A stretch of DNA of 64,000 nucleotides, taken from Sedimentisphaerales bacterium (GTDB lineage Bacteria > Planctomycetota > Phycisphaerae > Sedimentisphaerales > SM23-30). The stretch lies in the NCBI GenBank assembly GCA_963666285.1, contig OY762711.1; one strand, written 5' to 3'. Of this stretch, positions 24,137 to 38,611 are shown one piece after another; the first letter of the stretch is position 1; each line of letters starts with the position of its first letter. The position numbers were made by a program, and so were the translations under genes. The notes under the pieces were generated by a model. That model made no database searches, was not told the DNA's origin, and saw only the letters and a program-made list of their open reading frames with translations.

Positions 24137-26239
24137 ATGCCTTTAATTTTTGCCCTGACAATTTTCACCGGCGCGTTCCTGCTCTTCCAGGTCCAGCCGA
24201 TCATAGGTAAATTTATTCTGCCATGGTACGGCGGCGGCCCGGCAGTATGGACTACCTGTATGCTCATATTCCAGCTTTTGCTTTTGGCCGGTTATGTTTA
24301 TGCTCATCTGCTGACAAAATATTTCAAACCGTCAAGACAGGCAATCATCCATTCATTATTTATTGTTGTCTCACTTTGCCTGCTGCCCATAACTCCTGCC
24401 GAGTCGCTTAAGCCCGGCATAAACACAGAACCAATCACCAGTATTTTAATCCTGCTCATTGCAACTGTAGGCATGCCGTATCTTATCCTGTCGGCTACCG
24501 GGCCGCTCTTGCAGGGCTGGTTTGCTCGCTGTCTGCCCGGCAAATCACCGTACCGGCTTTATGCTCTTTCTAATGTCGGTTCGATGCTTGCTCTTATCAG
24601 CTATCCGTTCCTGGTCGAACCTGCCGTTACCCGCACCCAGCAAACCCACATCTGGTCCTGGATTATGGCCGCTTTTGCTGTGATGAGTATCGCCTGTGCC
24701 TTCATTATGAAATTAAAGGGGACGGGCCCCATTTTTGCTCAATCAAATGAAATTCAATTAAAGGGGACAGACCCATTTAATTCTTACCAGGACAAAATCA
24801 CTCTTTCACGACGTTTCTTCTGGCTCGCATTTCCTGCAATAGCCTGCCTTGAGCTGCTCGCTATAACTGCTAAAATTACCCAGGACATTGCAGCTATCCC
24901 TTTCCTGTGGATACTGCCGCTGGCGATATATCTACTCACTTTTATTATATGTTTTGATAGTCATCGCTGGTACAAACACTCTATCTTTGTCCTGTTGTTT
25001 ATTTCTGCGATTGGCCTTACCGTCTGGCAGCGGCTCCAGCCGGACCGCTTCTCATTACCGCAGGAAATTGCTATTTACCTTGCTCTGCTGTTTACCTGTG
25101 CTATGGTCTGTCACGGTCAGTTGTATTACCTTAGGCCGGGCCACCATAAACTCACTAGTTATTATCTTATGATTGCGGCAGGTGGGGCACTCGGCGGTTT
25201 TATCGTTGCTGTCATTTGCCCGCTGATTTTCGATTCATACCTCGAACTCAACCTGGGCATTATTGCTTGCATTATGTTTACACTGCTCGCAGATATCCAT
25301 CGCAGACTGCCTCTGTCCAGGCGATTAATATGGGCGATGGCGATTATGATCGTTGGTATATGGTCTGTTTTATATCGAACTCCGGTTGACTCAGGTGGTA
25401 GGACCTCACTGTATCAGACCCGGAATTTCTTCGGTGTACTTACTGTTTGGACTGATGCCGCGGATTCTCCGCTTGACGCCCGCTACCTGCTCCAGCATGG
25501 TACAACGTTCCACGGCATACAGTTTCAGGACGCCGTGAAACGCCGTATACCCACCGCTTACTACGGCACCGAGGCAGGTGTTGGTATTGCCTTGGATGCT
25601 ATCTCGCACCATCGCCGTGGGATACCGTTTGCTATCGATGATACCGCTAGGGACCCTCTTCGCTTTGGCGTCGTTGGCCTTGGCGTAGGGACTATAGCCG
25701 CTTATGGCCTGCCCAGTGACTATTTCTGCTTCTATGAAATTGACCCTGCAGTTCTAAAAATCGCTGAAGATGACCGCTGGTTTTCATACCTTTCAGGCTG
25801 TCCATCTGACTATGAGGTGCTAATTGGTGATGCTAGACTTGTCATGGATACCCAACCGGATCAGGATTTCGACCTGCTTGTTATTGATGCTTTTTCCAGT
25901 GATTCAATACCGGTTCATTTGCTAACTGTCGAAGCTGTAAATGTTTATCTCAGACATCTTGATCAGGATGGTGTTTTAGCATTCCATCTTTCTAATCGAC
26001 ATCTGGATCTTCCATCTGTTGTCCTTCGTCTGGCTGAAGAACTGGGAATTAATGCTTGTCAGGTACATGATGATGGTGATGATGATATTGCAACTTTGGC
26101 TGCTACCTGGGTATTACTTTGCCGCAATGAAAATATTCTTAATACTCAAATGGTTGATAGCAAAGAAGATATGGTAAAGAAAAAAGAAGTTAGTCTGTGG
26201 ACTGATGATTTTGTTAATCTATTTGAAATACTAAAATAA
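24137..26239 (+). CDS. Multi-pass membrane protein fused to a spermidine-synthase-like SAM-binding domain
   Basis: FLLFQVQP, YRLYALSNVGS, RNFFG, HGTTFHG, VGLGVG, YEIDP, GDAR, DAFSSDSIPVHLLT, WTDD. Confidence 0.88.
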   Translation: MPLIFALTIFTGAFLLFQVQPIIGKFILPWYGGGPAVWTTCMLIFQLLLLAGYVYAHLLTKYFKPSRQAIIHSLFIVVSLCLLPITPAESLKPGINTEPITSILILLIATVGMPYLILSATGPLLQGWFARCLPGKSPYRLYALSNVGSMLALISYPFLVEPAVTRTQQTHIWSWIMAAFAVMSIACAFIMKLKGTGPIFAQSNEIQLKGTDPFNSYQDKITLSRRFFWLAFPAIACLELLAITAKITQDIAAIPFLWILPLAIYLLTFIICFDSHRWYKHSIFVLLFISAIGLTVWQRLQPDRFSLPQEIAIYLALLFTCAMVCHGQLYYLRPGHHKLTSYYLMIAAGGALGGFIVAVICPLIFDSYLELNLGIIACIMFTLLADIHRRLPLSRRLIWAMAIMIVGIWSVLYRTPVDSGGRTSLYQTRNFFGVLTVWTDAADSPLDARYLLQHGTTFHGIQFQDAVKRRIPTAYYGTEAGVGIALDAISHHRRGIPFAIDDTARDPLRFGVVGLGVGTIAAYGLPSDYFCFYEIDPAVLKIAEDDRWFSYLSGCPSDYEVLIGDARLVMDTQPDQDFDLLVIDAFSSDSIPVHLLTVEAVNVYLRHLDQDGVLAFHLSNRHLDLPSVVLRLAEELGINACQVHDDGDDDIATLAATWVLLCRNENILNTQMVDSKEDMVKKKEVSLWTDDFVNLFEILK
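24711..24782. repeat. Tandem pair of REP-like palindromes inside the CDS
   Basis: AATTAAAGGGGACGGGCCCCATTT (24711) and AATTAAAGGGGACAGACCCATTTAATT (24756), 45-nt period. Confidence 0.7.
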
Positions 26240-26290: not shown

Positions 26291-26387
26291 AAAATCATGC
26301 GGGAATAATACTGCATAATTTCATATATAAATATATGAAATAGTTGTGCTTGTATGCATTTCTTGTTTATATGTTAATTATTATATT

Positions 26388-26903
26388 ATGAGCGATAAGT
26401 CGAATATTTTCTTTAGTTTATATAACAGTGTCCATGGCAGAGTCTTTTCCTATCTGCTGACACTGGTGCATAATCGTGCCGCTGCTGAGGATATTTTGCA
26501 GGATACGGCATCATTTATGTGGGAAAATTTTGATAAATTTGAAGAGGGGACCAATTTTAATGCGTGGGCCATCCGAATCGCAAAAAATAAGGCGATGGAG
26601 TACTTACGTGATAACAATAAGACTAAAAAACTGCTTAGCGACCAGCTGTATCAATCTATTGCTGAAACCGCCGAACAGGAATCAAAAGAGTTTAATCGCC
26701 GGATCAATGCTTTAGATAAGTGTATGGAAAAGCTTAGTAGTAAGGATCAGACGCTGCTGCAGCTTCGGTATAGAAATAATGTTTCAATGAACGAAATTTC
26801 TGTCCGAACAGGTAGGTCCAGTAGTGCTCTTTATAGAAATATAACCAGGATCTATGAATCTTTGAGGATTTGTATTTCAAAAACTCTGGTTCAGGAATTG
26901 TAA
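26388..26903 (+). CDS. ECF sigma-70 factor
   Basis: AAEDILQDT..MWENFDKFEEGTNFNAWAIRIA (region 2); CMEKLS..LLQLRY..EIS (region 4). Confidence 0.92.
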   Translation: MSDKSNIFFSLYNSVHGRVFSYLLTLVHNRAAAEDILQDTASFMWENFDKFEEGTNFNAWAIRIAKNKAMEYLRDNNKTKKLLSDQLYQSIAETAEQESKEFNRRINALDKCMEKLSSKDQTLLQLRYRNNVSMNEISVRTGRSSSALYRNITRIYESLRICISKTLVQEL

Positions 26904-26977
26904 GATATGTACATTGCTAGTTGTAAGTATTTTATTTACAACTAGATAGTATTTAAGACTTTTGAAAGTTGATACTG

Positions 26978-28618
26978 ATGTCAGATTATGAACGAAAAGA
27001 TGATTTAGCCCCATTATTCCTTAAGCTGATTGAAAATAACATTTCAGATCAGGAACTGGAATTGCTGGAGCAGATATTGTCAGAAAACCCTGAGTATGTC
27101 CGGGAATATTGCCAGTTTGCTGCGACATATTCGGCTGTTCAGGTCAAGTTCGGTGCTGATATTACCCAGCCTGACAGACTGGATTGGAAACTGATTTCAG
27201 AACTGGCAGAATATGAAGTATCTGCACCGGAAGTGGTTATTGAAAAACCAGTTATAGAAAATAATATTCACGAGAAAGCTAGTGTGGATTTCTATTCCAA
27301 GCATCGCAGGCTTCGTTTTTGGTATTATTCTATTTTTACCACAGCTGCCTCGATATTGATCTTTTTTGTAATCTATGCAAATGTTTTTCCTCCTCAGTTG
27401 TCCGAGCCGGTTGCTACCTTAGTTGATCAGATAAATGTCAAATGGCATCAGGAATCTGAGCGATTATTGACCAATGACCGTCTTTTGACACATCAGGCTC
27501 CGTATTTCATTGATAACGGGATATTGAGCATTCGATACGATAATGGTGTTGACGTTGTGATTGAAGGGCCGGCCAAATTTGAGATTGATAGAGATGGTAT
27601 ATTTCTTAATCATGGCAAATTATATTCACATGTTTCTCCGACAGGTACTGGCTTTGCAGTGGACACACCAAACTCAAGATTTATTGATCTTGGCACTGAA
27701 TTTGGTGTGGAAGTTGACGTGAAAGGATCCTCTGAACTTCACGTTATGGATGGTGAAGTGCAGCTTTATGCCGGAAGAACTGGCGGTAAGCGTTCCAGCA
27801 AAAAGGTTTTCCAGGGCAATGCTTATAAATTCGATGCTGAGCATGGCAACCTGGAAACAATTCCTATGAAGGATAACCAGTTTGTACGATTTGTGAATTC
27901 TAAATCAAATGATATTTGGCGAGGTGAGAAACTTTCTCTTGCCGACCTCGTTGCCGGTGGTAATGGCTTTGGGACTGGTAAGCCCAATATCTGTATACAT
28001 CCTTTAACAGGAAAATTCACTTTTTTTAAGGATGCTTCCACTTCTGAAAGACTAATATCTGTTGATCTTAAACCTGTTTTAGAATCAGAATTTGTAGATT
28101 CAATTTTCGTGCCTGACGGTAACGAAAATGAACCGGTTGTAATCAGCTCAAATGGTGTTACCTATTCCGGTTTTCCAGATACCAGGGGCAAGTTCTTTTC
28201 TTATCTTAAGGCCAATCCATATTATTTAGGTGAAGGCGGGGACGGATATTATGACAAATATGATCCTTCTTCTGAAAATGTAGCAATATACATGCATTCT
28301 AACCTTGGTGTTACCTTTGACCTTGCAAAGATACGCAATAATTTTGGCAATAATATCAAGATACCATCATTCAATTTTGAATATGGTTTCAGAAATGAGT
28401 CAAATAAGAAAAATGGTAAGATAGATTTCTGGGTATTTGTTGATGGTGAATTAAAATTCAGTGCCAGACAAGTTGAGCATTTTATAATGCCAAAAGCTGC
28501 CCAGCTATCTTTAGCCGATGATGCCAGTTTTTTGACACTGTCAATTACGGAATCTGATGACGGTGGTGGAAGAGATTGGGGAGCATTTATCAATCCGGAA
28601 TTAACTATAGAAAAATAA
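26978..28618 (+). CDS. FecR-like anti-sigma factor with extracytoplasmic C-terminal domain (NPCBM-like)
   Basis: Single TM; IEGPAKF, GFAVDTP..FIDLGTEFGVEV..SELHVMDGEV; C-terminal FWVFVDG, FLTLSITE, DWGAFINPEL. Confidence 0.85.
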   Translation: MSDYERKDDLAPLFLKLIENNISDQELELLEQILSENPEYVREYCQFAATYSAVQVKFGADITQPDRLDWKLISELAEYEVSAPEVVIEKPVIENNIHEKASVDFYSKHRRLRFWYYSIFTTAASILIFFVIYANVFPPQLSEPVATLVDQINVKWHQESERLLTNDRLLTHQAPYFIDNGILSIRYDNGVDVVIEGPAKFEIDRDGIFLNHGKLYSHVSPTGTGFAVDTPNSRFIDLGTEFGVEVDVKGSSELHVMDGEVQLYAGRTGGKRSSKKVFQGNAYKFDAEHGNLETIPMKDNQFVRFVNSKSNDIWRGEKLSLADLVAGGNGFGTGKPNICIHPLTGKFTFFKDASTSERLISVDLKPVLESEFVDSIFVPDGNENEPVVISSNGVTYSGFPDTRGKFFSYLKANPYYLGEGGDGYYDKYDPSSENVAIYMHSNLGVTFDLAKIRNNFGNNIKIPSFNFEYGFRNESNKKNGKIDFWVFVDGELKFSARQVEHFIMPKAAQLSLADDASFLTLSITESDDGGGRDWGAFINPELTIEK

Positions 28619-28671: not shown

Positions 28672-28697
28672 GGGCAGAGCTGTAAAAAGCTCTGCCC
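28672..28697. terminator. Hairpin between convergent genes (probable terminator)
   Basis: GGGCAGAGCT-GTAAAA-AGCTCTGCCC perfect 10-bp stem. Confidence 0.65.
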
Positions 28698-28706
28698 GTT
28701 CTTCTA

Positions 28707-29369
28707 CTACCTCCTTCTAATAAACATACCCATTGCAGCAATTATTAATGTGGCCGATGTCGGTTCCGGCACAACCTGAAAAGTAAATGTTGCTATACTT
28801 GAATCTATTCCACCGGCAGTTAGTTCTGCGGAGGCTTCAAACTGTAGTTCGTAGGTGCCAGGTGCGGTGAAACCCCAGTTATAGTGAGCATGGCCAAGTG
28901 ATAGCAAAATTGAGTCGGAGTCAGATATTCCGTCTTCTGTTGACATGTATATTGTTTTGGTGCCAAAAGCATCTTCCTGCCACAGAGAGAAATTACCAGT
29001 TCCGGATGTAGTTGTAATACCGATCAAAGTGAATTTAATAGTATCATTTACAAATAATCCTTCTTCAGCTTCGCCTGTGCCAATGCCCAGGAACGGGAGG
29101 TCATGGTTATGGCTTTGCGGCAGAGCCCACATTTCACCATTATAGGCAGCTTCCGGGACTGATATTGTGATATCGCCGGGTTCATACTCTGCTTCAACGT
29201 CATCGATTCCGTCTATAGTTGCCCCCTCTGCATGAAAGTGCAGTTCGAGGCCATCTTCTCCGGCCATCCCTATGTCAGCGTGACCTCCGGTAAACATTGC
29301 TGAAGCGTATATCGAGTTCGCGGCTAAAGTTAATACGGTAATTGCAAATAGTTTAGTTATAATTCTCAT
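28707..29369 (-). CDS. PEP-CTERM protein with TIGR03769 (choice-of-anchor M)-like His-rich domain
   Basis: Signal peptide; GHADIG, LELHFH, WALPQSHNHDLPFLG, GHAHYNWGFTAPGTYEL; C-terminal VPEP-TM-RRR. Confidence 0.85.
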   Translation of the reverse strand: MRIITKLFAITVLTLAANSIYASAMFTGGHADIGMAGEDGLELHFHAEGATIDGIDDVEAEYEPGDITISVPEAAYNGEMWALPQSHNHDLPFLGIGTGEAEEGLFVNDTIKFTLIGITTTSGTGNFSLWQEDAFGTKTIYMSTEDGISDSDSILLSLGHAHYNWGFTAPGTYELQFEASAELTAGGIDSSIATFTFQVVPEPTSATLIIAAMGMFIRRR

Positions 29370-29491
29370 TTTTTAATCCTTTATAAATTAAATTGATATT
29401 GTTTATGTAAAAAAATTACTCGGTTACTGTTTGGAAATATTCATCTTTATTTTGCTAAATTTAAGTTACATTTTCATTTATTCTGTTGAGT

Positions 29492-30442
29492 TTATTCGCA
29501 TCCAGGATAACCGCAAAGCAGCCATTCTCCGGCAGTTATCTGCAGTTCATTAATATCTATTGTGTTTTTGTCATCCTGATAAATGTCAGCTATTCCACAT
29601 TCTGATTCAGAGACGCAGTTGCTTTCCAGCCAGTATTCAGCAAGTAACGCCAGGTCGAAAAGATCAACTTTGCAGTCTCCGCTAAAGGGTTCGTTATTGA
29701 TAGGCCAGATATCAGCGAAAAGGGTTTCCTGGCAGTTATAAACTGTCGCAATCTCAAAATCGATCTCGTAGTATCCCGGTTTGCTAAAACCCCAGTTTAG
29801 ATGTCTGTGCCCGCCTGCTGATATATAATACGTATCGTCACTGGTTATACCGTCGCTATATGATGACATAAATACTGTTGTTGGCCCTGTCTGCCATACT
29901 GAAAACTGGCCACCTTCCGGCCCGCGAACATCTTTCAAGGTTACTCTGAACCATTGGTCGCCGGTGTCAGCGTTTTTATCCGGATCGTTCGGGTTCCAGT
30001 CGCACAAGTTGTATGTATCAGAGTCGTGAGCAGCAAAACCGAGTGGTAGTTCACCGTTATTGGCATTTTGCGGCAAAATCCACAATTCTCCGCCAGCACC
30101 AACTCCTGTGAATTCAAAGCCGCCCGGTATTGAGTTGTAATAAGTATTACTATTACCGTATAGCAGTCCATCTTCAAGCTCGACACGTTGTCCTTCCTGG
30201 CCGCTTCCCGGTGAATCATAAGATAAATGCGGGTCCCAACCGGATGATTTGAATGATACTTCAACGTCTGTGTGGTAGGTATCGATTATCGTAAAATTAT
30301 TTGGATCAAAATTGTTGGGCTCTGAGTTTGAACCCTCTAAATAGAAATGCAGAGTTATTCCCTTTGTCAGCATACTGCAGTTATTATCTGCATAACAGTT
30401 TAGCGACATCAATGCGGCTATTATAATTATCATGTACTTCAT
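29492..30442 (-). CDS. Secreted TIGR03769-like domain protein with dockerin-like C-terminus
   Basis: HTD, WILPQN..LPLGF, GPEGGQFSVW, GGHRHLNWGFSKPGYYEI; GDCKVDLFDLALLAEYWL and ADI...IDINEL...WL. Confidence 0.8.
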   Translation of the reverse strand: MKYMIIIIAALMSLNCYADNNCSMLTKGITLHFYLEGSNSEPNNFDPNNFTIIDTYHTDVEVSFKSSGWDPHLSYDSPGSGQEGQRVELEDGLLYGNSNTYYNSIPGGFEFTGVGAGGELWILPQNANNGELPLGFAAHDSDTYNLCDWNPNDPDKNADTGDQWFRVTLKDVRGPEGGQFSVWQTGPTTVFMSSYSDGITSDDTYYISAGGHRHLNWGFSKPGYYEIDFEIATVYNCQETLFADIWPINNEPFSGDCKVDLFDLALLAEYWLESNCVSESECGIADIYQDDKNTIDINELQITAGEWLLCGYPGCE

Positions 30443-30457
30443 TTCTTATCCTTTACG

Positions 30458-31138
30458 CTAGTCTTTAGGTTTAGCAAAATTGTAAAAGTTATCTGCCCAT
30501 TCTTTGATAGTGTCTTTTGGTAGGGGGTCAACATGTGTATCGGCATATAAAAACAGTGTGCAGTTTTTATACCTGTCCACCTGGATATCCTTTTGGATGG
30601 TATCCCATGGGACATTAGGAGCAGGGTTAAACCATAATCTCGAATGGGTATGATCATTAGTAACATTTGCATCCAAATTATTTGCCCCGACAAATGTAGT
30701 AATACACTCTGCCTGTCTTTTTATCCTGTCTTTATTGCGATACGACTTACCTGTTATTCTGCCGAAAGGGTCTGTTTCATCAACAGCAATATATTCATTC
30801 AATACATAGCTGCTTACCTTGTTTGCCAGTCTTTCGGCTTTTTTGGGGTCTGCCGGACATATCCTGATTTCATCAATATCAGAAAAATACTTTGATAATG
30901 TATATATCCATGATTCTTCGTCGGTTTTATCGTGAGTTGTTTCAGGAAAATACCCTTTGTTGTCCGCAGCGTACATTTCAATTGCAATGCCAATTTGTCG
31001 CATATTACTGGCCGAGGCGACGCGTCTTGCCTGTACCCTGGCATTTGCCAGTGCAGGCATAAGAATGCTGACCAGTAACGCAATTATGGATATTACAACC
31101 AGAAGTTCTATCAACGTAAATGCGCACTTATTTTTCAT
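30458..31138 (-). CDS. Prepilin-type N-terminal cleavage/methylation protein (DUF1559-like)
   Basis: AFTLIELLVVISIIALLVSILMPAL, SNMRQIG, CPAD, SSY..N, C-terminal LYADTHV. Confidence 0.88.
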   Translation of the reverse strand: MKNKCAFTLIELLVVISIIALLVSILMPALANARVQARRVASASNMRQIGIAIEMYAADNKGYFPETTHDKTDEESWIYTLSKYFSDIDEIRICPADPKKAERLANKVSSYVLNEYIAVDETDPFGRITGKSYRNKDRIKRQAECITTFVGANNLDANVTNDHTHSRLWFNPAPNVPWDTIQKDIQVDRYKNCTLFLYADTHVDPLPKDTIKEWADNFYNFAKPKD

Positions 31139-31324
31139 TACGTTTATCCTTTTGTATGTTTAAACGTTTCCATGATATCTTAATGTTTTGTTATCAAGAT
31201 ATAAAAACGGGTGTGGTAAACATCTTAGCGCATAGCATTCTTACAGGTTGATACGGCATACAAATATACCACAATCAACATGTCTTATTAGTTGATGCGT
31301 TAAGAAATAATTAGAAAATGTAAC

Positions 31325-31675
31325 TTAAATGAAATGAGAAAGAGGGGGAGAACGAGATCTGGCTATACACAGTGTCTGGCTCTCGTAAGCATTGAATGCT
31401 TCAGTTGTTGTTCCGATGATAATTTCAGTAAATGAAATACTAAAGGATGGCTCGGTAATAATTTTGCCGTAGCAATACAGATGGTGCTGACAAATAGGGC
31501 ATTTGTCTGGATCATGTTTGCTGTTGGAATTGTGGTCGCCGCTGTCAGTGTGTTCATTTTGGCAGTAGCTGGATTGATTGCATGGCAAATGCATGTAGTA
31601 AATAACATTTACCGATGAAAGGGTAAATGCTGCTAAGGTTATAAAAACCAATAGTTTACTACCAATTCTTTTCAT
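31325..31675 (-). CDS. DUF2946-like small Cys/His-rich protein with CxxC and C-terminal RSPP
   Basis: N-terminal hydrophobic segment, HDPDKCPICQHH, ...ARSRSPP near the C-terminus. Confidence 0.7.
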   Translation of the reverse strand: MKRIGSKLLVFITLAAFTLSSVNVIYYMHLPCNQSSYCQNEHTDSGDHNSNSKHDPDKCPICQHHLYCYGKIITEPSFSISFTEIIIGTTTEAFNAYESQTLCIARSRSPPLSHFI

Positions 31676-31846
31676 TAACTCAAAAAGTCCTTCTATTTAG
31701 CCTGTTTATTGACGCTAATATTATATACCTCAATTATATTATAGTACTAATAAATTAAAAGCAAAGTTTGATTTATTTTAAAGAACCGCTAATATATATT
31801 AAGAATATACTGATATATAGAAGCTATAATATTGTAGTTGCTTGCT

Positions 31847-32284
31847 ATGAAAAGATTTAACGTACAATTTGTATTACCTTTTCTGATTATAACAGTTTTG
31901 CTGATTAATCAGGGATTAGTTGTGTGCATTTGCCAGGCAGGACACATAAAAGTTCAGCCTGTAGTACATAGCAGTTGCCATTGTGAACATGAACATAGTG
32001 GTGATAGTCACTCCAGTCATTTATCCGGCATAAAACATCCTGTCGATGGAGGTTTATTTGCTATTGATCAAGGTAAATGTCGATGTGATATCTGTGTTGA
32101 TGTTCCTCTGGATAATTCTGAGATGCTGCCGGGTAGCGATTTAAATTTATCTGCATATTTCGCATTTTTGTCTGATTCGGTGGCCTTTAGTGAAATAATT
32201 GATATGTTTCCGACACCTATAACCCGCGATTCATCCGAATTGCGGTTCCATTTTCCTTTAAGTACTGTCATTATGCGCAATTGA
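31847..32284 (+). CDS. Small exported Cys/His-rich protein upstream of the heavy-metal pump
   Basis: Hydrophobic N-terminus; VVCICQAGH, HSSCHCEHEH, CRCDICVDVP; C-terminal LSTVIMR. Confidence 0.7.
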   Translation: MKRFNVQFVLPFLIITVLLINQGLVVCICQAGHIKVQPVVHSSCHCEHEHSGDSHSSHLSGIKHPVDGGLFAIDQGKCRCDICVDVPLDNSEMLPGSDLNLSAYFAFLSDSVAFSEIIDMFPTPITRDSSELRFHFPLSTVIMRN

Positions 32285-32440
32285 TAGTACCCTCTTTTTT
32301 TCAATCTACTTTTTATAATTTGCGGTCACAGTCTGCTATTCTGTTCAATTAATGCATTTATGCGTATATTTGGAATGGTTTAGACGGCTTTGGGCTGCAT
32401 AAAGGGAATTACTTTAGATATTTGTATCAGAGGAGATTTT

Positions 32441-33688
32441 ATGTCTCGATTATTAATTGTTTGCCTGGTATTACTTACCGGTTCTCTTTTTGCGAATGAC
32501 AATATATCAGGTTTTACCGAGCCTGGCGGTGAGCTTACACTTAAAAATGCTGTTGCTGCGACATTGCTTGGCAGTCCTCAATTACATGCCTATAGCAGCG
32601 AAATACGTTCGGCACGTGCCAGGCAGTTACAGGCCGGGCTAACCGCTGACCCGGAGCTGGAATTTGAGTTTGATGAGTTTGGCGGCAATAAATCATTTAG
32701 CGGACTTGATTCGATGGAAACCACTCTCAAACTGAGCCAGATAATTCAGTTTGGAGATAAGGTTGCGATCCGTGAAAAGGTATATTCTTATGATACTCTC
32801 CTGGCGGAGCTGGAATATGCGTCTAAAGAGCTTGATATATGTAAAGAAGTTGCAGACAGTTTTATAAAACTGCTGGTTGTTCAGAAAAAAATCGAATTGG
32901 CTGGTGAACAGGTTCAAATATGTAAAAAGATGGCTGATATGATTGATAAGCGGGTGCAAGCTGGAAAGACCGGTCCGCTTGACTATATGAAGGCAAAGAT
33001 GTTGCTGGCAAAGGCCGGGTTGGTTGAAAAACAGATTGTCGTGCATAAGGAATATCTGAGAAAGAAACTCGCATCACTCTGGGGCAGTCAGGAACCCCAA
33101 TTCGGCAGGTTGGCAGGTGATCTGGAAGAGTATAATAATGTGCCTCCGATTGCTGAGTTGGAAAAGATAATTGCCAATAATCCTGATATTAACCAATGGG
33201 CAGTAGAAATCCAGAAACGGCAGGCAAAGGCTGAACTGGCCAGGTCCCAGACCAGTCCGGATATAAAATTAAGCGGCGGAGTTAAATATTTTAACGAATC
33301 TGATGGGACGGCATTTGTTGTTGGGATAGGAATACCGCTAAGAAAACCGGTTCGTAATCGCCAGTTGGAATTAGAAGCCAGGCATGACCTCGAAACTGCT
33401 TCGCAGCAGCAGCGGAGCAACTATCTGCTTGTCTGGGGTGAGTTGAACAGGCTGCATAGTGAGTTGGCTAGTTCTTATGAGAAAGTGACAGTTATAAAGT
33501 CTGAGATTCTTAGTACGGCAAAGGAATTGTTTGAGGCGACAATGCTTTCGTATGAACAGGGTAAAGTGGATTATTTGTATTTACTGGATTCTCAGAGAAG
33601 TTACTTCTCTGTACAGGAGGAATATCTTGATGCTCTGGCAGAATACCATCTGAAAATGAATGAACTAGACAGGATAGCAGGCAATTAA
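32441..33688 (+). CDS. Heavy-metal RND outer membrane factor (CzcC-like)
   Basis: AGAGGAG RBS; QAGL..DPELE, RVQAGK, YEQGK..YL.LLDSQR; first gene of the tripartite set. Confidence 0.88.
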   Translation: MSRLLIVCLVLLTGSLFANDNISGFTEPGGELTLKNAVAATLLGSPQLHAYSSEIRSARARQLQAGLTADPELEFEFDEFGGNKSFSGLDSMETTLKLSQIIQFGDKVAIREKVYSYDTLLAELEYASKELDICKEVADSFIKLLVVQKKIELAGEQVQICKKMADMIDKRVQAGKTGPLDYMKAKMLLAKAGLVEKQIVVHKEYLRKKLASLWGSQEPQFGRLAGDLEEYNNVPPIAELEKIIANNPDINQWAVEIQKRQAKAELARSQTSPDIKLSGGVKYFNESDGTAFVVGIGIPLRKPVRNRQLELEARHDLETASQQQRSNYLLVWGELNRLHSELASSYEKVTVIKSEILSTAKELFEATMLSYEQGKVDYLYLLDSQRSYFSVQEEYLDALAEYHLKMNELDRIAGN

Positions 33689-33719
33689 AATTTGTAATGA
33701 AAATATATTGAGGTTTTAT

Positions 33720-35426
33720 ATGAGAAATAAAATAATATTATTAATGAGTTTATGTGTGGTATCGGTAACGCTGTTAATTATGGTTGTGGTGCCGTTAACA
33801 GCGGCTGAGGAAGTATGCAGCGAATGCAATACTTGTGCCGGAGTTGAGACACAGGATGCCCATTCTCATGATGAAGAGCTTGAGTCTGTGCATGATGGGC
33901 ATGTTGGCGAATATTCTGTTCATGAACTAGAAGCAGAGTCAACTGAAGGTCATGATGGACATGAGCATGAAGATTCAACTGGCGAAGATCACGCTGGTCA
34001 TGAAGAAGGTGCTATTCATTTAACTGCAGATGAAATTAAACTTATAGGAATTCAAGTTGTTGAAGTGGCCAAAGGTGAGATTCCCGAGTCTGCTAAATTA
34101 ACAGGTCAGGTGCAATTGAATGATGACAGGCTTGCGCATATCTCGGCATTGACGCCCGGCATTGTGCGACAGGTAAACAAAAGTACCGGTGACTCAGTTT
34201 CAGCAGGTGAGGTTTTGGCCTGGCTGGAAAGTGTTGAACTTGGACAGGCGAAGGTTGAGTACCTTGATATACTGGCAGAAGTCGGATGTTGTAAAACTCT
34301 ACTCGATAGAGCGCAAAATGTTAAAGACAATACAATAAAACTGATAGGTTTTCTGCGAACAAAGCCGACTTTGGATGAGTTAAAGAGTTTTGAGCCTTTA
34401 GAGATGGGTGAATATCGCAGTAAACTGGTTAAATCTTATGCAGAGTTTATTCTGGCCGGCAATGTATATGACAGGGAAAAAAAGTTGTTTAATCAGAAAA
34501 TATCCAGTCAGCAGGAATACCTGGATGCAGAAAATGCTCTAAAAAAAGCTGAGGCTGAGTATATCGCGGTCCAGGATATCTCTGAATTCCAGGTTAAGCA
34601 GGACTTGCTGGAAGAAGCGACCAATGCCCAAAGGATGGAGTTGGCTTTGAAGGGTGCCGAACGAAAACTTTACGTTTTAGGCCAGGATAAAAACGATATT
34701 AAAGGCCTGGTTCTTACAAGTTTGGTAAGCCGGGAAAATGAGGAATTTGACACATCCTGCCCTGATCCTGATTGTGAAGAATGTAAAAAGAAAGCTGCAT
34801 TGGTAAACAGCAGCAAGAAGCCGGCCATTTTTGAGCGGTTAGGCTGGTATCCGCTGCGTGCTCCTTTTGATGGTACAATAATAGAGAAGCATATTACTCT
34901 TGGCGAAAGGCTTGGTGAAGACCGATCAGCCTTTACTGTTGCTGATCTTAAGACCGTTTGGATTGACCTGGATGTATTTCCTAACGATCAGGCAAAAATA
35001 TTTAAAGGGCAAAAATGCCTGATAAATACCAATGGCAAAAGCTATCAGGGTAGTATAAGTTTCGTCAGCCCGGTACTTAACGCAAAAACACGAACTGCGA
35101 CTGCCAGGGTGGTAATCGGAAATAACGATTACGGCTTGAGACCAGGTCAGTTTGTTAATGCAGAAATTTATGGAGATACAGTTAAATATGACAGGGTGGT
35201 CCCCAGGGCGGCTGTGCAGACTGTTGCAGGCAGACAGGTGGTTTTTGTTAGTGATGGCGAAGATTATGAAATGAAGCCTGTTATCCTGGGTTATGGTAAC
35301 AGCCGGTTTGTTGAGATTGTTTCTGGTGTCAACTCAGGAGAGAAGGTAGTTTCCCAGGGGGCATTTGACCTGAAGGCTAAAGTTGTCACCAGTACTCTCG
35401 ATAGTCATGCCGGACATGGACACTAA
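33720..35426 (+). CDS. Heavy-metal RND membrane fusion protein (CzcB/CusB-like) with His/Cys-rich extensions
   Basis: His-rich N-terminus; LRAPFDGTIIEK, ADLKTVW, LRPGQFV; C-terminal HAGHGH. Confidence 0.9.
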   Translation: MRNKIILLMSLCVVSVTLLIMVVVPLTAAEEVCSECNTCAGVETQDAHSHDEELESVHDGHVGEYSVHELEAESTEGHDGHEHEDSTGEDHAGHEEGAIHLTADEIKLIGIQVVEVAKGEIPESAKLTGQVQLNDDRLAHISALTPGIVRQVNKSTGDSVSAGEVLAWLESVELGQAKVEYLDILAEVGCCKTLLDRAQNVKDNTIKLIGFLRTKPTLDELKSFEPLEMGEYRSKLVKSYAEFILAGNVYDREKKLFNQKISSQQEYLDAENALKKAEAEYIAVQDISEFQVKQDLLEEATNAQRMELALKGAERKLYVLGQDKNDIKGLVLTSLVSRENEEFDTSCPDPDCEECKKKAALVNSSKKPAIFERLGWYPLRAPFDGTIIEKHITLGERLGEDRSAFTVADLKTVWIDLDVFPNDQAKIFKGQKCLINTNGKSYQGSISFVSPVLNAKTRTATARVVIGNNDYGLRPGQFVNAEIYGDTVKYDRVVPRAAVQTVAGRQVVFVSDGEDYEMKPVILGYGNSRFVEIVSGVNSGEKVVSQGAFDLKAKVVTSTLDSHAGHGH

Positions 35427-35524
35427 TACAGGTTATCCGTAACTGATTCTATCTGATATGAAAATTATATAGGTATAATATGGACCGTCATATACAGAAC
35501 CACATAATATAAAGGTAAAATGCA

Positions 35525-38500
35525 ATGCATGTTAAATTGATAAATGTTTCAGTAAAGTATCGTCTTTTGGTTTTGCTGGCGATATTGTTTGTTACTTCTT
35601 TTGGCGTTTACGAATATAAACAGCTGCCCGTAGGTGCGTTTCCGGACATTTCTCCGGTAATGGTGCCAATATTTACAGAGGCTGATGGAATGGCACCGGA
35701 AGAAATAGAGCGACTGATCAGTTTTCCGATAGAATCTGTTATGAATGGACTTCCGAGAGTTGAACAGGTAAAATCTACCTCTGCTTTTGGCATGTCGGTG
35801 GTATATGTATATTTCAAAGATAATACTGATCTCTATTTTGCCCGACAGATAGTGGATGAGCGTCTGAACGAAGCTATGGCAAAAATGCCGAATCTGGTGG
35901 ATAAGCCCAAACTTGGGCCTGTTTCTACCGGTTTAGGCCAGATATTTATCTATTATCTTGAGGCTGATGATTCCGTTGACACAGAAGGTAAAGATAAATT
36001 AAGCTACCTTAGAGACCTTAACGACTGGGTTGTTAAATATCAGTTGCAAATGGTCAAAGGTGTAACTGATATTTTGAGTGTGGGCGGTTATGTTTTGCAA
36101 TATCAGGTTGATATAAATCCTAACCTGCTTATGCAGTACGAGCTGACTTTACAGGATGTTGTAGAGGCGATAAATTCTAACAATGCCAATGTTGGCGGTC
36201 AGTATATTGTCTCCGGCCAGGAAGAGAACCTGGTTCGCGGTATTGGCCTGGTAAAAAGCAGGGAAGATATCGGGGCAATAACAATACGAACATATAATGG
36301 TACGCCCGTTCGAATCAGTGATGTAGCTGAAGTTAAATTTGGTAGGGAAATCAGGCGCGGGGTAGTATCCCGTAATGGAGAACAGGAGGTAGTCTCTGGC
36401 ATTGTTATGCAGCTATACGGCGAAAACACATCTGAAGTTATTGAAAGATTGTATGATATAGTGCCTTTAGTTCAGGCATCGCTGCCCGATGGGGTGAAAA
36501 TTGTTCCTTATTATGAACAGCAGGAGCTGGTCCAGAAAGCGACACATACTGTTAAGACGGCTCTTCTGCAGGGTGCTGTGCTGGCAGCGATAGTGCTGTT
36601 CCTTTTCCTGGGGAATTTACGGACCGCTCTCGTGGTAGTGTTTGCTTTACCGTTCAGCTCGCTTATTGCGATTATCCTTATGCGTGCAGCGGGGATATCG
36701 GCTAATCTTATGTCGCTGGGCGGGGTAGCGATAGCGATGGGTATGCTTGTTGATGGTGCTATTGTCATGGCCGAAAATATATTTCGTCATTTGAATACAA
36801 ATGACCAGGATGATCTGAGGCATAGAACTGATATTATAATGGAAGCAGCGGTTGAAGTTGCCAAACCCATTATATTTGCATTGTTAATTGTGGTTGTTGT
36901 CTTTGTTCCTATCCTGACATTAGAAGGAGTTGAAGGTAAGATGTTTATTCCAATGGCCCAGACACTTTGTTTTGGCCTGTTGGGCTCATTGATATTTGCT
37001 GTTTTGATTGTTCCGCCTCTTTGCAGCTATTTACTTCATACTGGTGTTCATAAAGAGTTTTTTCTTTTTAGCTGGCTGAAAAAGCAGCATGATCCGCTAT
37101 TGTATTTTGCCGTAAAGCGCCCACTGGTCGTACTGTTGCTGGTGATAGGACTGATTGCTGTTAGTTGTGTTATGCTGCCAAATATCGGTACCGAATTTAT
37201 CCCGACTTTGGAAGAAGGTTCGATAATGATTGGTGTTACGATGGCACCTGGTATATCACTTGATAAAGCTGTTGATACTATTCAGCGTTTGGAACGCAGT
37301 ATAACTGAGTTTGATGAAGTAGAAGAGGTCGTCTCACGTATCGGAAGACCCGAGGCAGGCAGTCATCCGCATCCTGTGAATTATGCCGAGGTACATATCG
37401 AGCTGCTTCCGCAGAATCAATGGCAGTCAACCGGTTCCAAGGCTGAACTTATTGAAAAGATCGAGGCGAAACTCAAACATTATCCCGGTTTGCAGCTTAA
37501 TTTTACTCAGCCTATCCAGAATGCTTTTGATGAGCTGCTTAGCGGTGTCAAAGCCCAGGTTGCGATCAAGGTTTATGGTGAAGATCTTGACATTTTACAG
37601 AAAAAAGCTGCTGAGATCAAAAACACTATCGACAATATTGAAGGGTTGGCAGATTTGTCTCTGGAACAAAGCAACGGGCAGCCCCAGGTGCAGGTCATTG
37701 CAGATCGACAGGCTTGTGCAAGGTATGGAGTCAATATAAGTGAAATTCTTGAACTGGTAGAAGCTGCTGTCGGTGGTAAGGTGGTTGATAATGTTTATCT
37801 CAATACCAGGAGGTATGGTATACAGGTGCGATATCAGCAGCAGTTTAGAGATGACATTGAACAGATCAGTAACCTGATGGTAAATACTTCCGATGGCAGC
37901 CGTGTGCCTTTGAGCCATGTTGCCGAGGTCAAAAAAACGCTGGGTCCGATTCAAATAAATCGTGAGAATAACCAGCGCCGCTGGGTTATACAAGGTAATA
38001 TTCGCAACCGGGATCTGGGTAGTGTTGTAGCCGAGATCAAAGATCGAATAGCTGAAAAAATTGAACTGCCGGCCGGCTATCATGTTGAATACGGCGGCCA
38101 GTTTGAAAGTCAGGTGAGGGCAATGACACGGCTGGCAGTTATTATACCAGTTGTTATATTTATGATTTTCTTTATGCTGTTTCTTGCGTTTGGCTCAGTA
38201 AAAAGTTCATTGCTGGTAATGATAAATATTCCGCTTGCTCTGATTGGCGGTGTTTTTGGTTTGTACCTTATGGGAGAATATTTATCAGTACCTGCGGCAG
38301 TTGGTTTTATCGCTCTTTTTGGAATTGCTATCCAGGACAGTATGGTTCTTGTAACTTGTATTGGCCAGTTGTCGGAAAGTATGAATCTTCGTGATGCTGT
38401 TATCAACGGCTGCCATCAAAGGTTCAGGCCGGTTGTTATGACTTCAATTACGACGGTTCTTGGACTTATGCCGTTGCTGCTGGCCAGTGGTATTGGTGCA

Positions 38501-38611
38501 GAAGTGCAAAGACCATTAGCTGTTGTGGTAGTATTTGGCCTGATATCATCAACCTTCCTGACATTATTTGTTATCCCGTCATTTTATAATGTAATAATGA
38601 AAGAGAAATGA
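35525..38611 (+). CDS. Heavy-metal efflux RND permease (CusA/CzcA family)
   Basis: AFPDISP, LGPVSTGLGQI, MSLGGVAIAMGMLVDGAIVMAEN, LEGVEGKMF, GAEVQRPLA. Confidence 0.94.
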   Translation: MHVKLINVSVKYRLLVLLAILFVTSFGVYEYKQLPVGAFPDISPVMVPIFTEADGMAPEEIERLISFPIESVMNGLPRVEQVKSTSAFGMSVVYVYFKDNTDLYFARQIVDERLNEAMAKMPNLVDKPKLGPVSTGLGQIFIYYLEADDSVDTEGKDKLSYLRDLNDWVVKYQLQMVKGVTDILSVGGYVLQYQVDINPNLLMQYELTLQDVVEAINSNNANVGGQYIVSGQEENLVRGIGLVKSREDIGAITIRTYNGTPVRISDVAEVKFGREIRRGVVSRNGEQEVVSGIVMQLYGENTSEVIERLYDIVPLVQASLPDGVKIVPYYEQQELVQKATHTVKTALLQGAVLAAIVLFLFLGNLRTALVVVFALPFSSLIAIILMRAAGISANLMSLGGVAIAMGMLVDGAIVMAENIFRHLNTNDQDDLRHRTDIIMEAAVEVAKPIIFALLIVVVVFVPILTLEGVEGKMFIPMAQTLCFGLLGSLIFAVLIVPPLCSYLLHTGVHKEFFLFSWLKKQHDPLLYFAVKRPLVVLLLVIGLIAVSCVMLPNIGTEFIPTLEEGSIMIGVTMAPGISLDKAVDTIQRLERSITEFDEVEEVVSRIGRPEAGSHPHPVNYAEVHIELLPQNQWQSTGSKAELIEKIEAKLKHYPGLQLNFTQPIQNAFDELLSGVKAQVAIKVYGEDLDILQKKAAEIKNTIDNIEGLADLSLEQSNGQPQVQVIADRQACARYGVNISEILELVEAAVGGKVVDNVYLNTRRYGIQVRYQQQFRDDIEQISNLMVNTSDGSRVPLSHVAEVKKTLGPIQINRENNQRRWVIQGNIRNRDLGSVVAEIKDRIAEKIELPAGYHVEYGGQFESQVRAMTRLAVIIPVVIFMIFFMLFLAFGSVKSSLLVMINIPLALIGGVFGLYLMGEYLSVPAAVGFIALFGIAIQDSMVLVTCIGQLSESMNLRDAVINGCHQRFRPVVMTSITTVLGLMPLLLASGIGAEVQRPLAVVVVFGLISSTFLTLFVIPSFYNVIMKEK

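Follow-up and report, generated by a model that had tools for sequence, protein, structure and literature searches.

The stretch of Sedimentisphaerales bacterium DNA analyzed here (64,000 nucleotides of contig OY762711.1, assembly GCA_963666285.1; hereafter the window) carries at 28707-31675, on the minus strand, four open reading frames (ORFs) that encode, in order of transcription, a small leader peptide, a DUF1559 prepilin and two exported choice-of-anchor-M (NF038134) proteins, here called ChM-A and ChM-B. A preliminary description, made from the sequence alone, had listed a CxxC/RSPP ORF, a prepilin and two paralogous anchored proteins in this order, and all four were found within the limits it gave. 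We conclude that they form a real, conserved cassette and probably a new variant of surface zinc scavenging, in which tethered scavengers with histidine sites would act under Zur, as in the ZnuE/F/G and ZepA systems. More specifically, we read the cassette as a zinc-starvation capture module whose private pilin docks on exported metal binders, and we give this reading a probability of about 0.55. The earlier proposal of metal capture through a pilin-like protein is supported by the conserved gene cluster, the conserved His motifs and a co-fold of pilin and ChM. The cassette recurs across planctomycetes and verrucomicrobia, often behind a predicted zinc-starvation switch. The window genome (G000) measures 6.35 Mb and is 97% complete; two relatives cited repeatedly below are G580, of the same genus, and G103, of the same family.

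Conservation of the pilin–ChM pair

A scan of a genome collection with a seven-sequence pilin alignment gave 197 stretches, of which the best 80 were kept as loci; the window pilin alone, as query of the same collection, found none. By record title, 33 of the 80 loci belong to Planctomycetota, 42 to Verrucomicrobiota and 5 to others. In 75 of them a ChM gene is found on the same strand at a distance of no more than 3 kb; of the five misses, four have less than 900 nt downstream and one has ChM on the opposite strand. When six loci identical to alignment seeds were left out (the remainder are called non-seed loci), ChM adjoined the pilin, on either strand, in 67 of the 67 loci with at least 1 kb downstream, so that the gene-neighborhood check proposed in the preliminary description found the cluster conserved. 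Among metagenome loci (the best 80 of 173), ChM was present in 72, and in 24 of 24 where the flanks were full. The link also holds in reverse: NF038134 scores over cut-off in 16 of the 201 genomes of the class, mostly as tandem pairs, and a pilin adjoins ChM in 15 of these 16. One protein record (P0144) even joins a ChM–PEP-CTERM protein and the pilin in a single frame. Kin among the loci are not independent, yet the pilin–ChM link spans two phyla. The cassette is patchy in its distribution: strong pilin matches occur in 5 of 401 genomes of the phylum (eight candidates scored per genome), 8 of the 401 have a ChM protein that exceeds the cut-off, and 5 of 41 near relatives carry the pilin.

One well-flanked pilin was seen without an adjacent ChM gene (L059:7189-7983, G081:C46); it lies downstream of a ZnuA-like gene and an RPPP leader, and the ChM genes of that genome are on other contigs. 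In three genomes of another planctomycete class (L060:9301-11391, L061:9390-11481 and L062:9309-11403), a single ChM–PEP-CTERM gene stands back to back with a different pilin, a Cys-rich DUF1559 protein of the H-X9-DG type, and a Zur-type box lies between the two genes, exact in two genomes and with one mismatch in the third. Because ChM is paired there with a different DUF1559 pilin, the pairing of a zinc binder with a private pilin seems to have arisen more than once. L060 also has a second pilin and MerC downstream, and L061 has a ZigA-like gene 6 kb away.

Predicted pilin–ChM-A complex

Co-folding of the pilin with the anchored proteins had been suggested at the outset. When ChM-A, the pilin head and two zinc ions were folded together, the complex scored 0.86, compared with 0.01 for the best control; among reference pairs, 116 of 157 solved complexes and 2 of 215 mismatched ones attain this mark, a calibration that holds only roughly here. 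The runs agree in at least 77% of contacts, with a predicted local distance difference test (pLDDT) value of at least 89 for the partners. In the lowest-error contacts of the model, the D123-P-F-G126 hairpin of the pilin packs on the W.LPQ and GHxHxNW strands of ChM-A, and the predicted interface includes H57, H212 and H214 of ChM-A and H69 and H165 of the pilin. Sequence search found no solved relative of the pilin head or the ChM-A head, and since there was no close fold match either, recall of a known complex is unlikely. The co-fold supports binding of the pilin to ChM-A but does not show it; we consider a physical interaction likely.

Covariation between the two proteins, calculated as mutual information with average product correction for 52 paired operons (effective number of sequences, 34), placed 14 of the top 50 pairs in the predicted interface, whereas shifted interfaces held 1.8 on average and none of 2160 shifts reached 14. 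The top couplings join the DPFG hairpin to I122 and P124 of ChM-A, and DPFG co-varies with W[IV]LPQ. Because this signal stems from few clades, we take it as modest support. The hairpin was present in 23 cases with ChM-A and 28 without, and absent in 1 with and 11 without. Covariation of the pilin with ChM-B is weak. Its top pair, G126–F135, falls in the loop that corresponds to an interface loop of ChM-A, but only one of the top 50 pairs connects the hairpin with the W.LPQ region.

The DUF1559 pilin

The pilin exceeds the cut-offs of two hidden Markov models (HMMs), N_methyl (30.6 vs 21.2 bits) and DUF1559 (SBP_bac_10; 27.5 vs 23.3 bits), and its DHTHS motif, which had marked it in the preliminary description, occupies residues 162-166. 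Among the 61 prepilin-like ORFs of the genome it alone carries DHxH. The His cluster is well kept in relatives: H69 in 127 of 143, D/E162 and H163 each in 147 of 150, and H165 in 138 of 150. An AlphaFold2 (AF2) model (pLDDT 96.7) has an N-terminal helix at residues 3-53, and pilins or pseudopilins fill 23 of the top 25 rows of a fold search (VIA), with modest scores (best Z 5.7, root-mean-square deviation 3.4, 118 residues aligned). Foldseek gave no match at E 0.001 or better for the model of the pilin or of ChM-B, which is no proof of a new fold. The pilin also lacks a match at E 0.1 or better to TIGR04294, the H-X9-DG motif, which is replaced by R…LYADxH in its subfamily. A profile of the pilin head collected 129 clusters at E<1e-30, which define a distinct subfamily. 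A general rule that prepilins of the window genome adjoin tagged exoproteins was considered and rejected (9 of 61 vs 51 of 600).

The ChM proteins

ChM-A and ChM-B are the only two ChM genes of the genome. ChM-B scores over cut-off with both NF038134 (90.3 bits) and TIGR03769 (55.7 bits), and ChM-A does so with NF038134 (77.3 bits, cut-off 55); with TIGR03769, the domain named in the preliminary description, ChM-A, at 28.1 bits, falls just under the cut-off of 30.9. Matches to TIGR03773 and TIGR03772 lie below cut-off. The two proteins are paralogs (36% identity over 118 aa, E 1e-14) that share H.D, W.LPQ and GH.H.NWGF..PG.Y, as had been described. Signal peptides and sorting tails were read from the sequence by eye. 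The dockerin-like tail of ChM-A, of a type common to 113 proteins of the genome, and the VPEP…RRR tail of ChM-B are visible as first described, but neither reaches its HMM cut-off (Dockerin_1 is weak, at E 0.042, and the PEP-CTERM scores fall short).

The candidate metal site of the ChM proteins consists of three His and one Asp, without Cys or Met. In ChM-A (H57-x-D59…H212-x-H214, 152 residues between the two motifs) H57, D59 and H212 occur in 51 of 51 relatives and H214 in 50; in ChM-B (H30-x-D32…H160-x-H162, 127 residues between) the counts among 104 are 90, 100, 100 and 97, in that order, and an additional H44-x-H46 is kept in 83 and 87. Together with the His cluster of the pilin, these near-invariant residues bear out the expectation that the His motifs would be conserved. 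HxD/HxH aligns as well in six of seven domains from five actinobacterial proteins, of which three bear the name TIGR03773. The AF2 model of ChM-B is a beta-sandwich (pLDDT 97.3) for which we make no fold assignment, because the fold-search scores (VIA; best Z 6.6, a mixture of cupredoxin, adhesin and Ig sandwiches) are at background level. The ESM Atlas returned unnamed clusters only, plus one cluster with PKD in 13% of its members. In some genomes giant multi-repeat ChM proteins replace the pair (L104, L138, L106, L214 and L220); L104:8675-12334 has six ChM domains in 1219 aa, and those of L138 reach 2640 aa.

A predicted Zur-type box upstream of the cassette

The pattern TGCAA-N5-TTGCA was picked by eye from one locus and then tested against controls, and blind dyad counting ranked a variant of it first among 5-mers. 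Counted with up to one mismatch within 2.5 kb upstream, the box occurs in 23 of 36 loci, whereas the controls give 1 (downstream), 2 (further upstream) and 1.6 (shuffles). Exact copies number 20 in the upstream regions, 0 downstream and 1 further upstream. It is found in 34 of 52 non-seed loci. Its position follows the operon head: in several loci without a leader it lies at about -85 to -105, where a leader is present at -450 to -720, and where the operon starts with genes for a His-rich membrane protein and a Fur-family protein at -1500 to -2100. The box matches the predicted Zur consensus of Desulfovibrio (PMC545781) and the site upstream of zepA in one verrucomicrobium (PMC10957091, supplement 1). 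G103 has only five exact boxes, of which one precedes this cassette and another a fur–znuA–ABC ATPase operon, whose Fur protein falls (E 1e-52) in the subfamily found beside the cassette.

Metal-related neighbors in the 80 loci are Fur-family genes (23), the His-rich membrane gene (11), and MerC-like (5), ZnuA-like (3) and ZigA-like (2) genes; no recurring copper gene was identified among the neighbors, most low-frequency clusters of which are unannotated. The metal was originally proposed to be Zn, Ni or Co. For the family, the box shared with fur–znuA in G103 favors zinc, and nothing points to nickel or cobalt; a role of the family in zinc acquisition is quite probable.

The membrane protein that heads the operon in 11 of the 80 loci (e.g. 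L037:12134-12928) is multi-pass with a His-rich loop, and its gene stands alone in the window genome (L227:7797-8693, equal to G000:C1:2037796-2038692). It has no Pfam or NCBIfam name and falls in unnamed ESM Atlas clusters, so that its label as a candidate new zinc permease is our inference. At L244:1470-3015 (G145), an OprB-family porin gene that follows feoB has two exact boxes and a near-match in front of it and is a candidate for regulation by zinc. A znuA operon that has no Zur-type box begins with the gene for a small ribbon-helix-helix-like protein whose tail is rich in Cys (L231:2688-3029, G078:C35); as read from its sequence, this protein is possibly another zinc regulator. At L232:530-5422 (G018:C33), NikR is divergent from genes for a dockerin-tailed exoprotein, a different prepilin, a ZnuA-family binder, an ABC ATPase and a permease; this operon looks like the counterpart of the cassette for nickel.

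The leader peptide

The leader consists of a hydrophobic N-terminus, a His-rich linker, CPIC at residues 59-62 and, 45 residues later, RSPP, which lies five residues from the C-terminal end. The preliminary description had picked it out by these motifs, and a whole-genome scan found it to be the only CxxC-(38-52)-RxPP ORF of the genome. The spacing is 45 in the window and in G580, and 45-47 in 10 of 10 aligned leaders. Its match to DUF2946 (PF11162; 15.3 bits, E 0.035) is below the gathering score of 23.7; among 14 leaders of relatives that were scanned, two (L108 and L132) pass this cut-off, six match below it and six have no match. The layout is of the CruR type, with an export signal, the position of first gene, a spacing of about 45 and a long spacer of 186 nt. 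CruR itself has CxxC and RxPP 45 residues apart and is described as responding to copper, with little or moderate effect of zinc (PMC9426467), and RSPP is reported as an arrest-permissive variant (PMC12992588). The segment at 31125-31400 folds better than its shuffles (z -3.21; 0 of 200 reach it), and the first bases 3′ of the leader stop are kept in G580. A strict leader is present in 27 of 61 non-seed loci, some of the others having single-Cys variants or no leader. In two verrucomicrobial loci (L117:1992-6990 and L135:2426-7655) a second RxPP leader, directly upstream of the cassette's own, heads genes for an unnamed outer-membrane-like protein and for ZnuA/AztC-like and AztB-like proteins.

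Organization and surroundings of the locus

The features of the locus are collected in Table 1. The gap between the pilin and ChM-A genes is 15 nt. We regard the hairpin at the operon end as a consensus match only, because the search found 5 terminator-like sites vs 3.2 expected; predicted promoters were no more numerous than chance would give (12 vs 13.5 expected).

Table 1. Positions of the cassette genes, their motifs and adjoining features in the window
Feature	Position	Strand	Basis or remark
Leader ORF, DUF2946/CruR-like, 116 aa	31325-31675	-	CxxC and RSPP; DUF2946 below cut-off
Leader CxxC (CPIC, C59-C62)	31490-31501	-	Invariant in 10/10 aligned leaders
Leader RSPP (R108-P111)	31343-31354	-	R, P and P invariant in 10/10 aligned leaders
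Leader–pilin spacer, 186 nt, probable regulatory RNA region	31139-31324	-	Fold z-score
DUF1559 prepilin, His-cluster subfamily, 226 aa	30458-31138	-	N_methyl and DUF1559 HMMs
Pilin DPFG hairpin, predicted ChM docking element	30761-30772	-	Co-fold contacts, covariation
Pilin DHTH, candidate metal site together with H69	30644-30655	-	Residue conservation
ChM-A, 316 aa, signal peptide, ChM domain and dockerin-like tail	29492-30442	-	NF038134
ChM-B, 220 aa, signal peptide, ChM domain and PEP-CTERM tail	28707-29369	-	NF038134, TIGR03769
Intrinsic-terminator-like hairpin closing the operon	28672-28697	-	10 bp stem directly after ChM-B stop
Divergent His/Cys-rich ORF and CzcCBA-type heavy-metal RND (resistance-nodulation-division) efflux operon	31838-38611	+	Context, outside the conserved cassette

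No TonB receptor or ABC importer lies beside the cassette in the window, as first stated; among relatives, a ZnuA-type ABC importer adjoins 3 of the 80 loci. The efflux operon next to the leader, which the preliminary description does not list, was identified by HMM scans (TIGR00914 at 1089 bits, OEP, CzcB-like). At its head, before the TolC–CzcB–CusA/CzcA genes, is a 148-aa His/Cys-rich ORF with no family match, which may be a second, different metal-sensing leader. We considered the Czc pump as a part of the system and rejected it: the operon does not adjoin the cassette in G580, and no CusA/CzcA cluster recurs among the neighbors in relatives. On the other side, genes for an extracytoplasmic function (ECF) sigma factor (TIGR02989) and a FecR/NPCBM anti-sigma protein (26346-28618, plus strand) converge on the operon end; a similar pair upstream in L034 is probably there by chance. 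Beyond them lies a fused gene resembling major facilitator superfamily transporters and spermidine synthase (24137-26239, plus strand), and similar genes stand near ChM in four loci of the L041 and L060-L062 clusters.

Discussion

We propose that the cassette operates under two switches. In most relatives a Zur-type repressor would act on TGCAA-N5-TTGCA at the operon head, as suggested by the conserved site and by analogy. The CruR-like leader would provide a second, translation-coupled switch, the ribosome stalling at RxPP until metal binds the nascent His/CxxC region. The exported ChM proteins, tethered by a PEP-CTERM or dockerin-like tail, would by homology bind Zn2+ at the His3-Asp site, while prepilin peptidase would process the pilin, which would then be assembled into a type IV pilus (T4P) or a fiber of the type II secretion system (T2SS) type that is encoded elsewhere; the window genome has 13 T2SSE-family ATPases, 2 exosortases and 5 unlinked TonB receptors. 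We infer that zinc is bound, that Zur and the arrest peptide exert control, and that the assembly machinery is supplied by genes outside the cassette. The DPFG hairpin is predicted to plug into the W.LPQ/GHxHxNW face, which would bring the His cluster of the pilin beside the ChM site. The hand-over and inward transport of metal are speculative: zinc, or the loaded protein, might pass to the pilin and be drawn inward by retraction or disassembly, and the next acceptor of zinc might be ZnuABC, in genomes that have it, or the His-rich membrane protein frequently encoded at the operon head. That the pilin itself carries metal inward is conceivable but somewhat doubtful. A wider extension, which we put forward as rather unlikely, is that DUF1559 pilins are ligand-specific receptors of TonB-independent import, with a pilus-driven metal relay through a face-to-face His site on a retracting fiber; that sister cassettes, such as the NikR-linked operon at L232 and the one suggested by a prepilin start opposite zepA in one verrucomicrobium, do likewise for other cargo; and that the present genus does without Zur and ZnuABC and uses a zinc-sensing arrest peptide as the switch.

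A number of observations weigh against the capture-and-docking model. The covariation rests on about two to three clade-level changes (10 sequences in which DPFG and LPQ change together), and the predicted interface is no more conserved than the rest of the protein (0.54 vs 0.66 for the pilin). The W.LPQ/HxH face of ChM is conserved in actinobacteria as well, where no pilin is linked to it, and the cassette encodes no pilus machinery. ZnuE mutants with His-to-Ala changes are reported still to shift with zinc in vitro (PMC12445094), so that a direct role of the HxD/HxH motif is unproven. Among non-seed loci, 18 of 52 lack the box and 34 of 61 lack a strict leader; the assignment of the box to Zur is a prediction in both PMC545781 and PMC10957091; and the characterized DUF2946 leaders, CruR (PMC9426467) and CutF (bioRxiv 2025.02.05.636593), are described as sensing copper.

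The window genome itself is an exception, and this too tells against the model. Its copy of the cassette has no box, with a best position weight matrix score of 3.4 vs at least 17 in the training sites; neither of its two Fur-family genes is of the cassette type; and in the 97% complete sequence no ZnuA, no ZIP and no convincing COG0523 protein was found. G580 has an intact cassette and likewise lacks the box, the cassette-type Fur and ZnuA, and no shared operator is visible between the upstream regions of the two genomes. With box, cassette-type Fur and ZnuA missing from both genomes, the leader may, judging from the sequences, be the only switch and the only recognizable metal sensor left in this genus. 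One of the two Fur-family genes encodes, on sequence reading in which the Fur part was tested, a 389-aa DtxR/MntR–Fur–FeoA-like fusion (C1:4112947-4114116).

The pilin–ChM linkage and the predicted binding would also be expected if the pilin were a cargo-specific adaptor for export or display, which lifts a folded, perhaps metal-loaded ChM protein through a T2SS or T4P secretin or holds it at the fiber tip, zinc entering by another route. T2SS pseudopilins contact their cargo, the abundance of T2SSE-family ATPases together with two exosortases would suit such a role, and so would the pairing of ChM with a different DUF1559 pilin in L060-L062. However, an adaptor has no need of a conserved His cluster that faces the ChM site, actinobacterial ChM proteins work without a pilin, and the prepilins of the window genome are barely enriched beside tagged exoproteins; we regard this explanation as unlikely. 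Still less probable, in our estimation, is that this lineage, at least, uses the cassette for copper or some other ion than zinc, with the CruR-like leader setting the signal and the cassette importing copper or buffering excess metal with the Czc-type pump. The CxxC-45-RxPP arrangement is exactly that of the copper-responsive CruR, the window copy lacks both a Zur box and Zur, a CzcCBA-type operon is divergent from it, and ChM-B weakly resembles cupredoxin-type sandwiches (Z about 5-6.6). Yet such Z-scores do not rise above background, in G580 no czc operon adjoins the cassette, the ChM site is made of three His and one Asp and contains neither Cys nor Met, znuA of G103 stands behind the same Zur-type box, and the recurrent metal-related neighbors are of the zinc type, copper genes failing to recur among neighbors that are, in the low-frequency clusters, mostly unannotated.

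Zinc might also be retained rather than moved, if the cassette produced a periplasmic zinc store or a zinc-stabilized adhesin under zinc limitation, with no vectorial transport. ZnuF and ZnuG are described as sequestering rather than delivering zinc in some backgrounds (PMC12445094), the ChM fold weakly resembles adhesin and Ig-like sandwiches, and some relatives carry six or more ChM repeats (L104). A zinc-consuming adhesin would, however, be costly under Zur derepression, and the face-to-face His sites would be left unexplained, which makes this alternative quite improbable. We retain the zinc-starvation capture module with a docking pilin as our working model.

Few unexplained families of Planctomycetota are as expanded as the DUF1559 prepilins, which have at least 41 genes per Planctomycetales genome and no known role (PMC8567305). 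Through this cassette, one subfamily gains a candidate ligand (zinc), a fixed partner, an interface predicted at residue level, a candidate metal site and a regulator, and a role proposed for a large family becomes testable with two small soluble domains. The pilin is moreover a candidate for the step left open in the work on ZepA, the delivery of metal from tethered zinc binders of diderms without a TonB receptor. The cassette further suggests that arrest peptides of the CruR type may sense zinc as well as copper.

Comparison with known systems

Pilin-type subunits are used for nutrient capture in the archaeal bindosome and in ComP, the DNA-uptake pilin. These resemble the cassette by description, as pilin-type capture without metal relay. 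With other DUF1559 (SBP_bac_10) prepilins of Planctomycetota, the cassette pilin shares the N_methyl and DUF1559 domains and the type IV pilin fold; it differs from them in its His cluster, in the R that replaces the H of H-X9-DG, in its fixed partner gene and in having a known type of regulator. The literature, searched largely outside subscription journals, yielded no description of the cassette or of a pilin in zinc uptake.

The leader shares with CruR of Bordetella and CutF of Rhodobacter the N-terminal export signal, CxxC, the 45-residue spacing, the C-terminal RxPP, a long spacer and a place at the head of a metal operon. Unlike them, leaders of the window type do not precede the gene of a copper TonB receptor or an oxidase; their operon encodes a pilin and ChM and stands under a Zur-type box. 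The window leader has RSPP where CruR has RAPP. A surface relay of zinc from protein to protein is described for the streptococcal Pht proteins with AdcAII (PMC12445094, discussion), a likeness by description that involves no pilin.

ZepA (All3515 of Anabaena PCC 7120; PMC10957091) is, as is predicted for the ChM proteins too, a Zur-controlled zinc exoprotein with a signal peptide, PEP-CTERM and a His site, described from diderms including the Planctomycetes–Verrucomicrobia–Chlamydiae group, and its genes share neighbors with the cassette (a Fur-family gene, amidase, COG0523 and ZnuA). It differs in its two-domain model and H-X2-9-H-F/Y-H site, compared with the single sandwich and HxD/HxH of ChM. 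The window proteins had no all3515 match at E 0.1 or better among the NCBIfam results, the presence of that model in the release being taken from RefSeq names; ChM-B does carry H-X13-H-F-H. On this HMM result and the published description, the ChM proteins appear not to be members of the ZepA family. The ZepA paper states that the route of zinc delivery is unknown, and its main text does not contain the word "pilin"; in its supplement, read by hand, a prepilin-type sequence begins on the opposite strand at one verrucomicrobial zepA (PMC10957091).

The closest likeness by family is to ZnuE, ZnuF, ZnuG and CmrA of Corynebacterium diphtheriae, the TIGR03769-TIGR03773 anchored-repeat ABC system, in which the ZnuE/F/G genes are described as Zur-repressed, and znuE and its motif histidines as needed for growth in low zinc (PMC12445094, PMC6711530). 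Common to both are NF038134 by HMM, the described HxD…HxH, which in ZnuE/F/G brackets about 150 residues, C-terminal anchoring tails, several paralogs per locus and Zur-type control, which for the cassette is predicted. The cassette differs in its diderm host, in PEP-CTERM or dockerin-like tails in place of sortase or transmembrane anchors, and in its additional leader peptide. By family, the ChM proteins belong to NF038134, yet the locus does not qualify as an anchored-repeat ABC system: no ZnuA is found in the window genome, ZnuA-like genes stand near 3 of the 80 loci, and the partner gene, instead of an ABC transporter, is a pilin.

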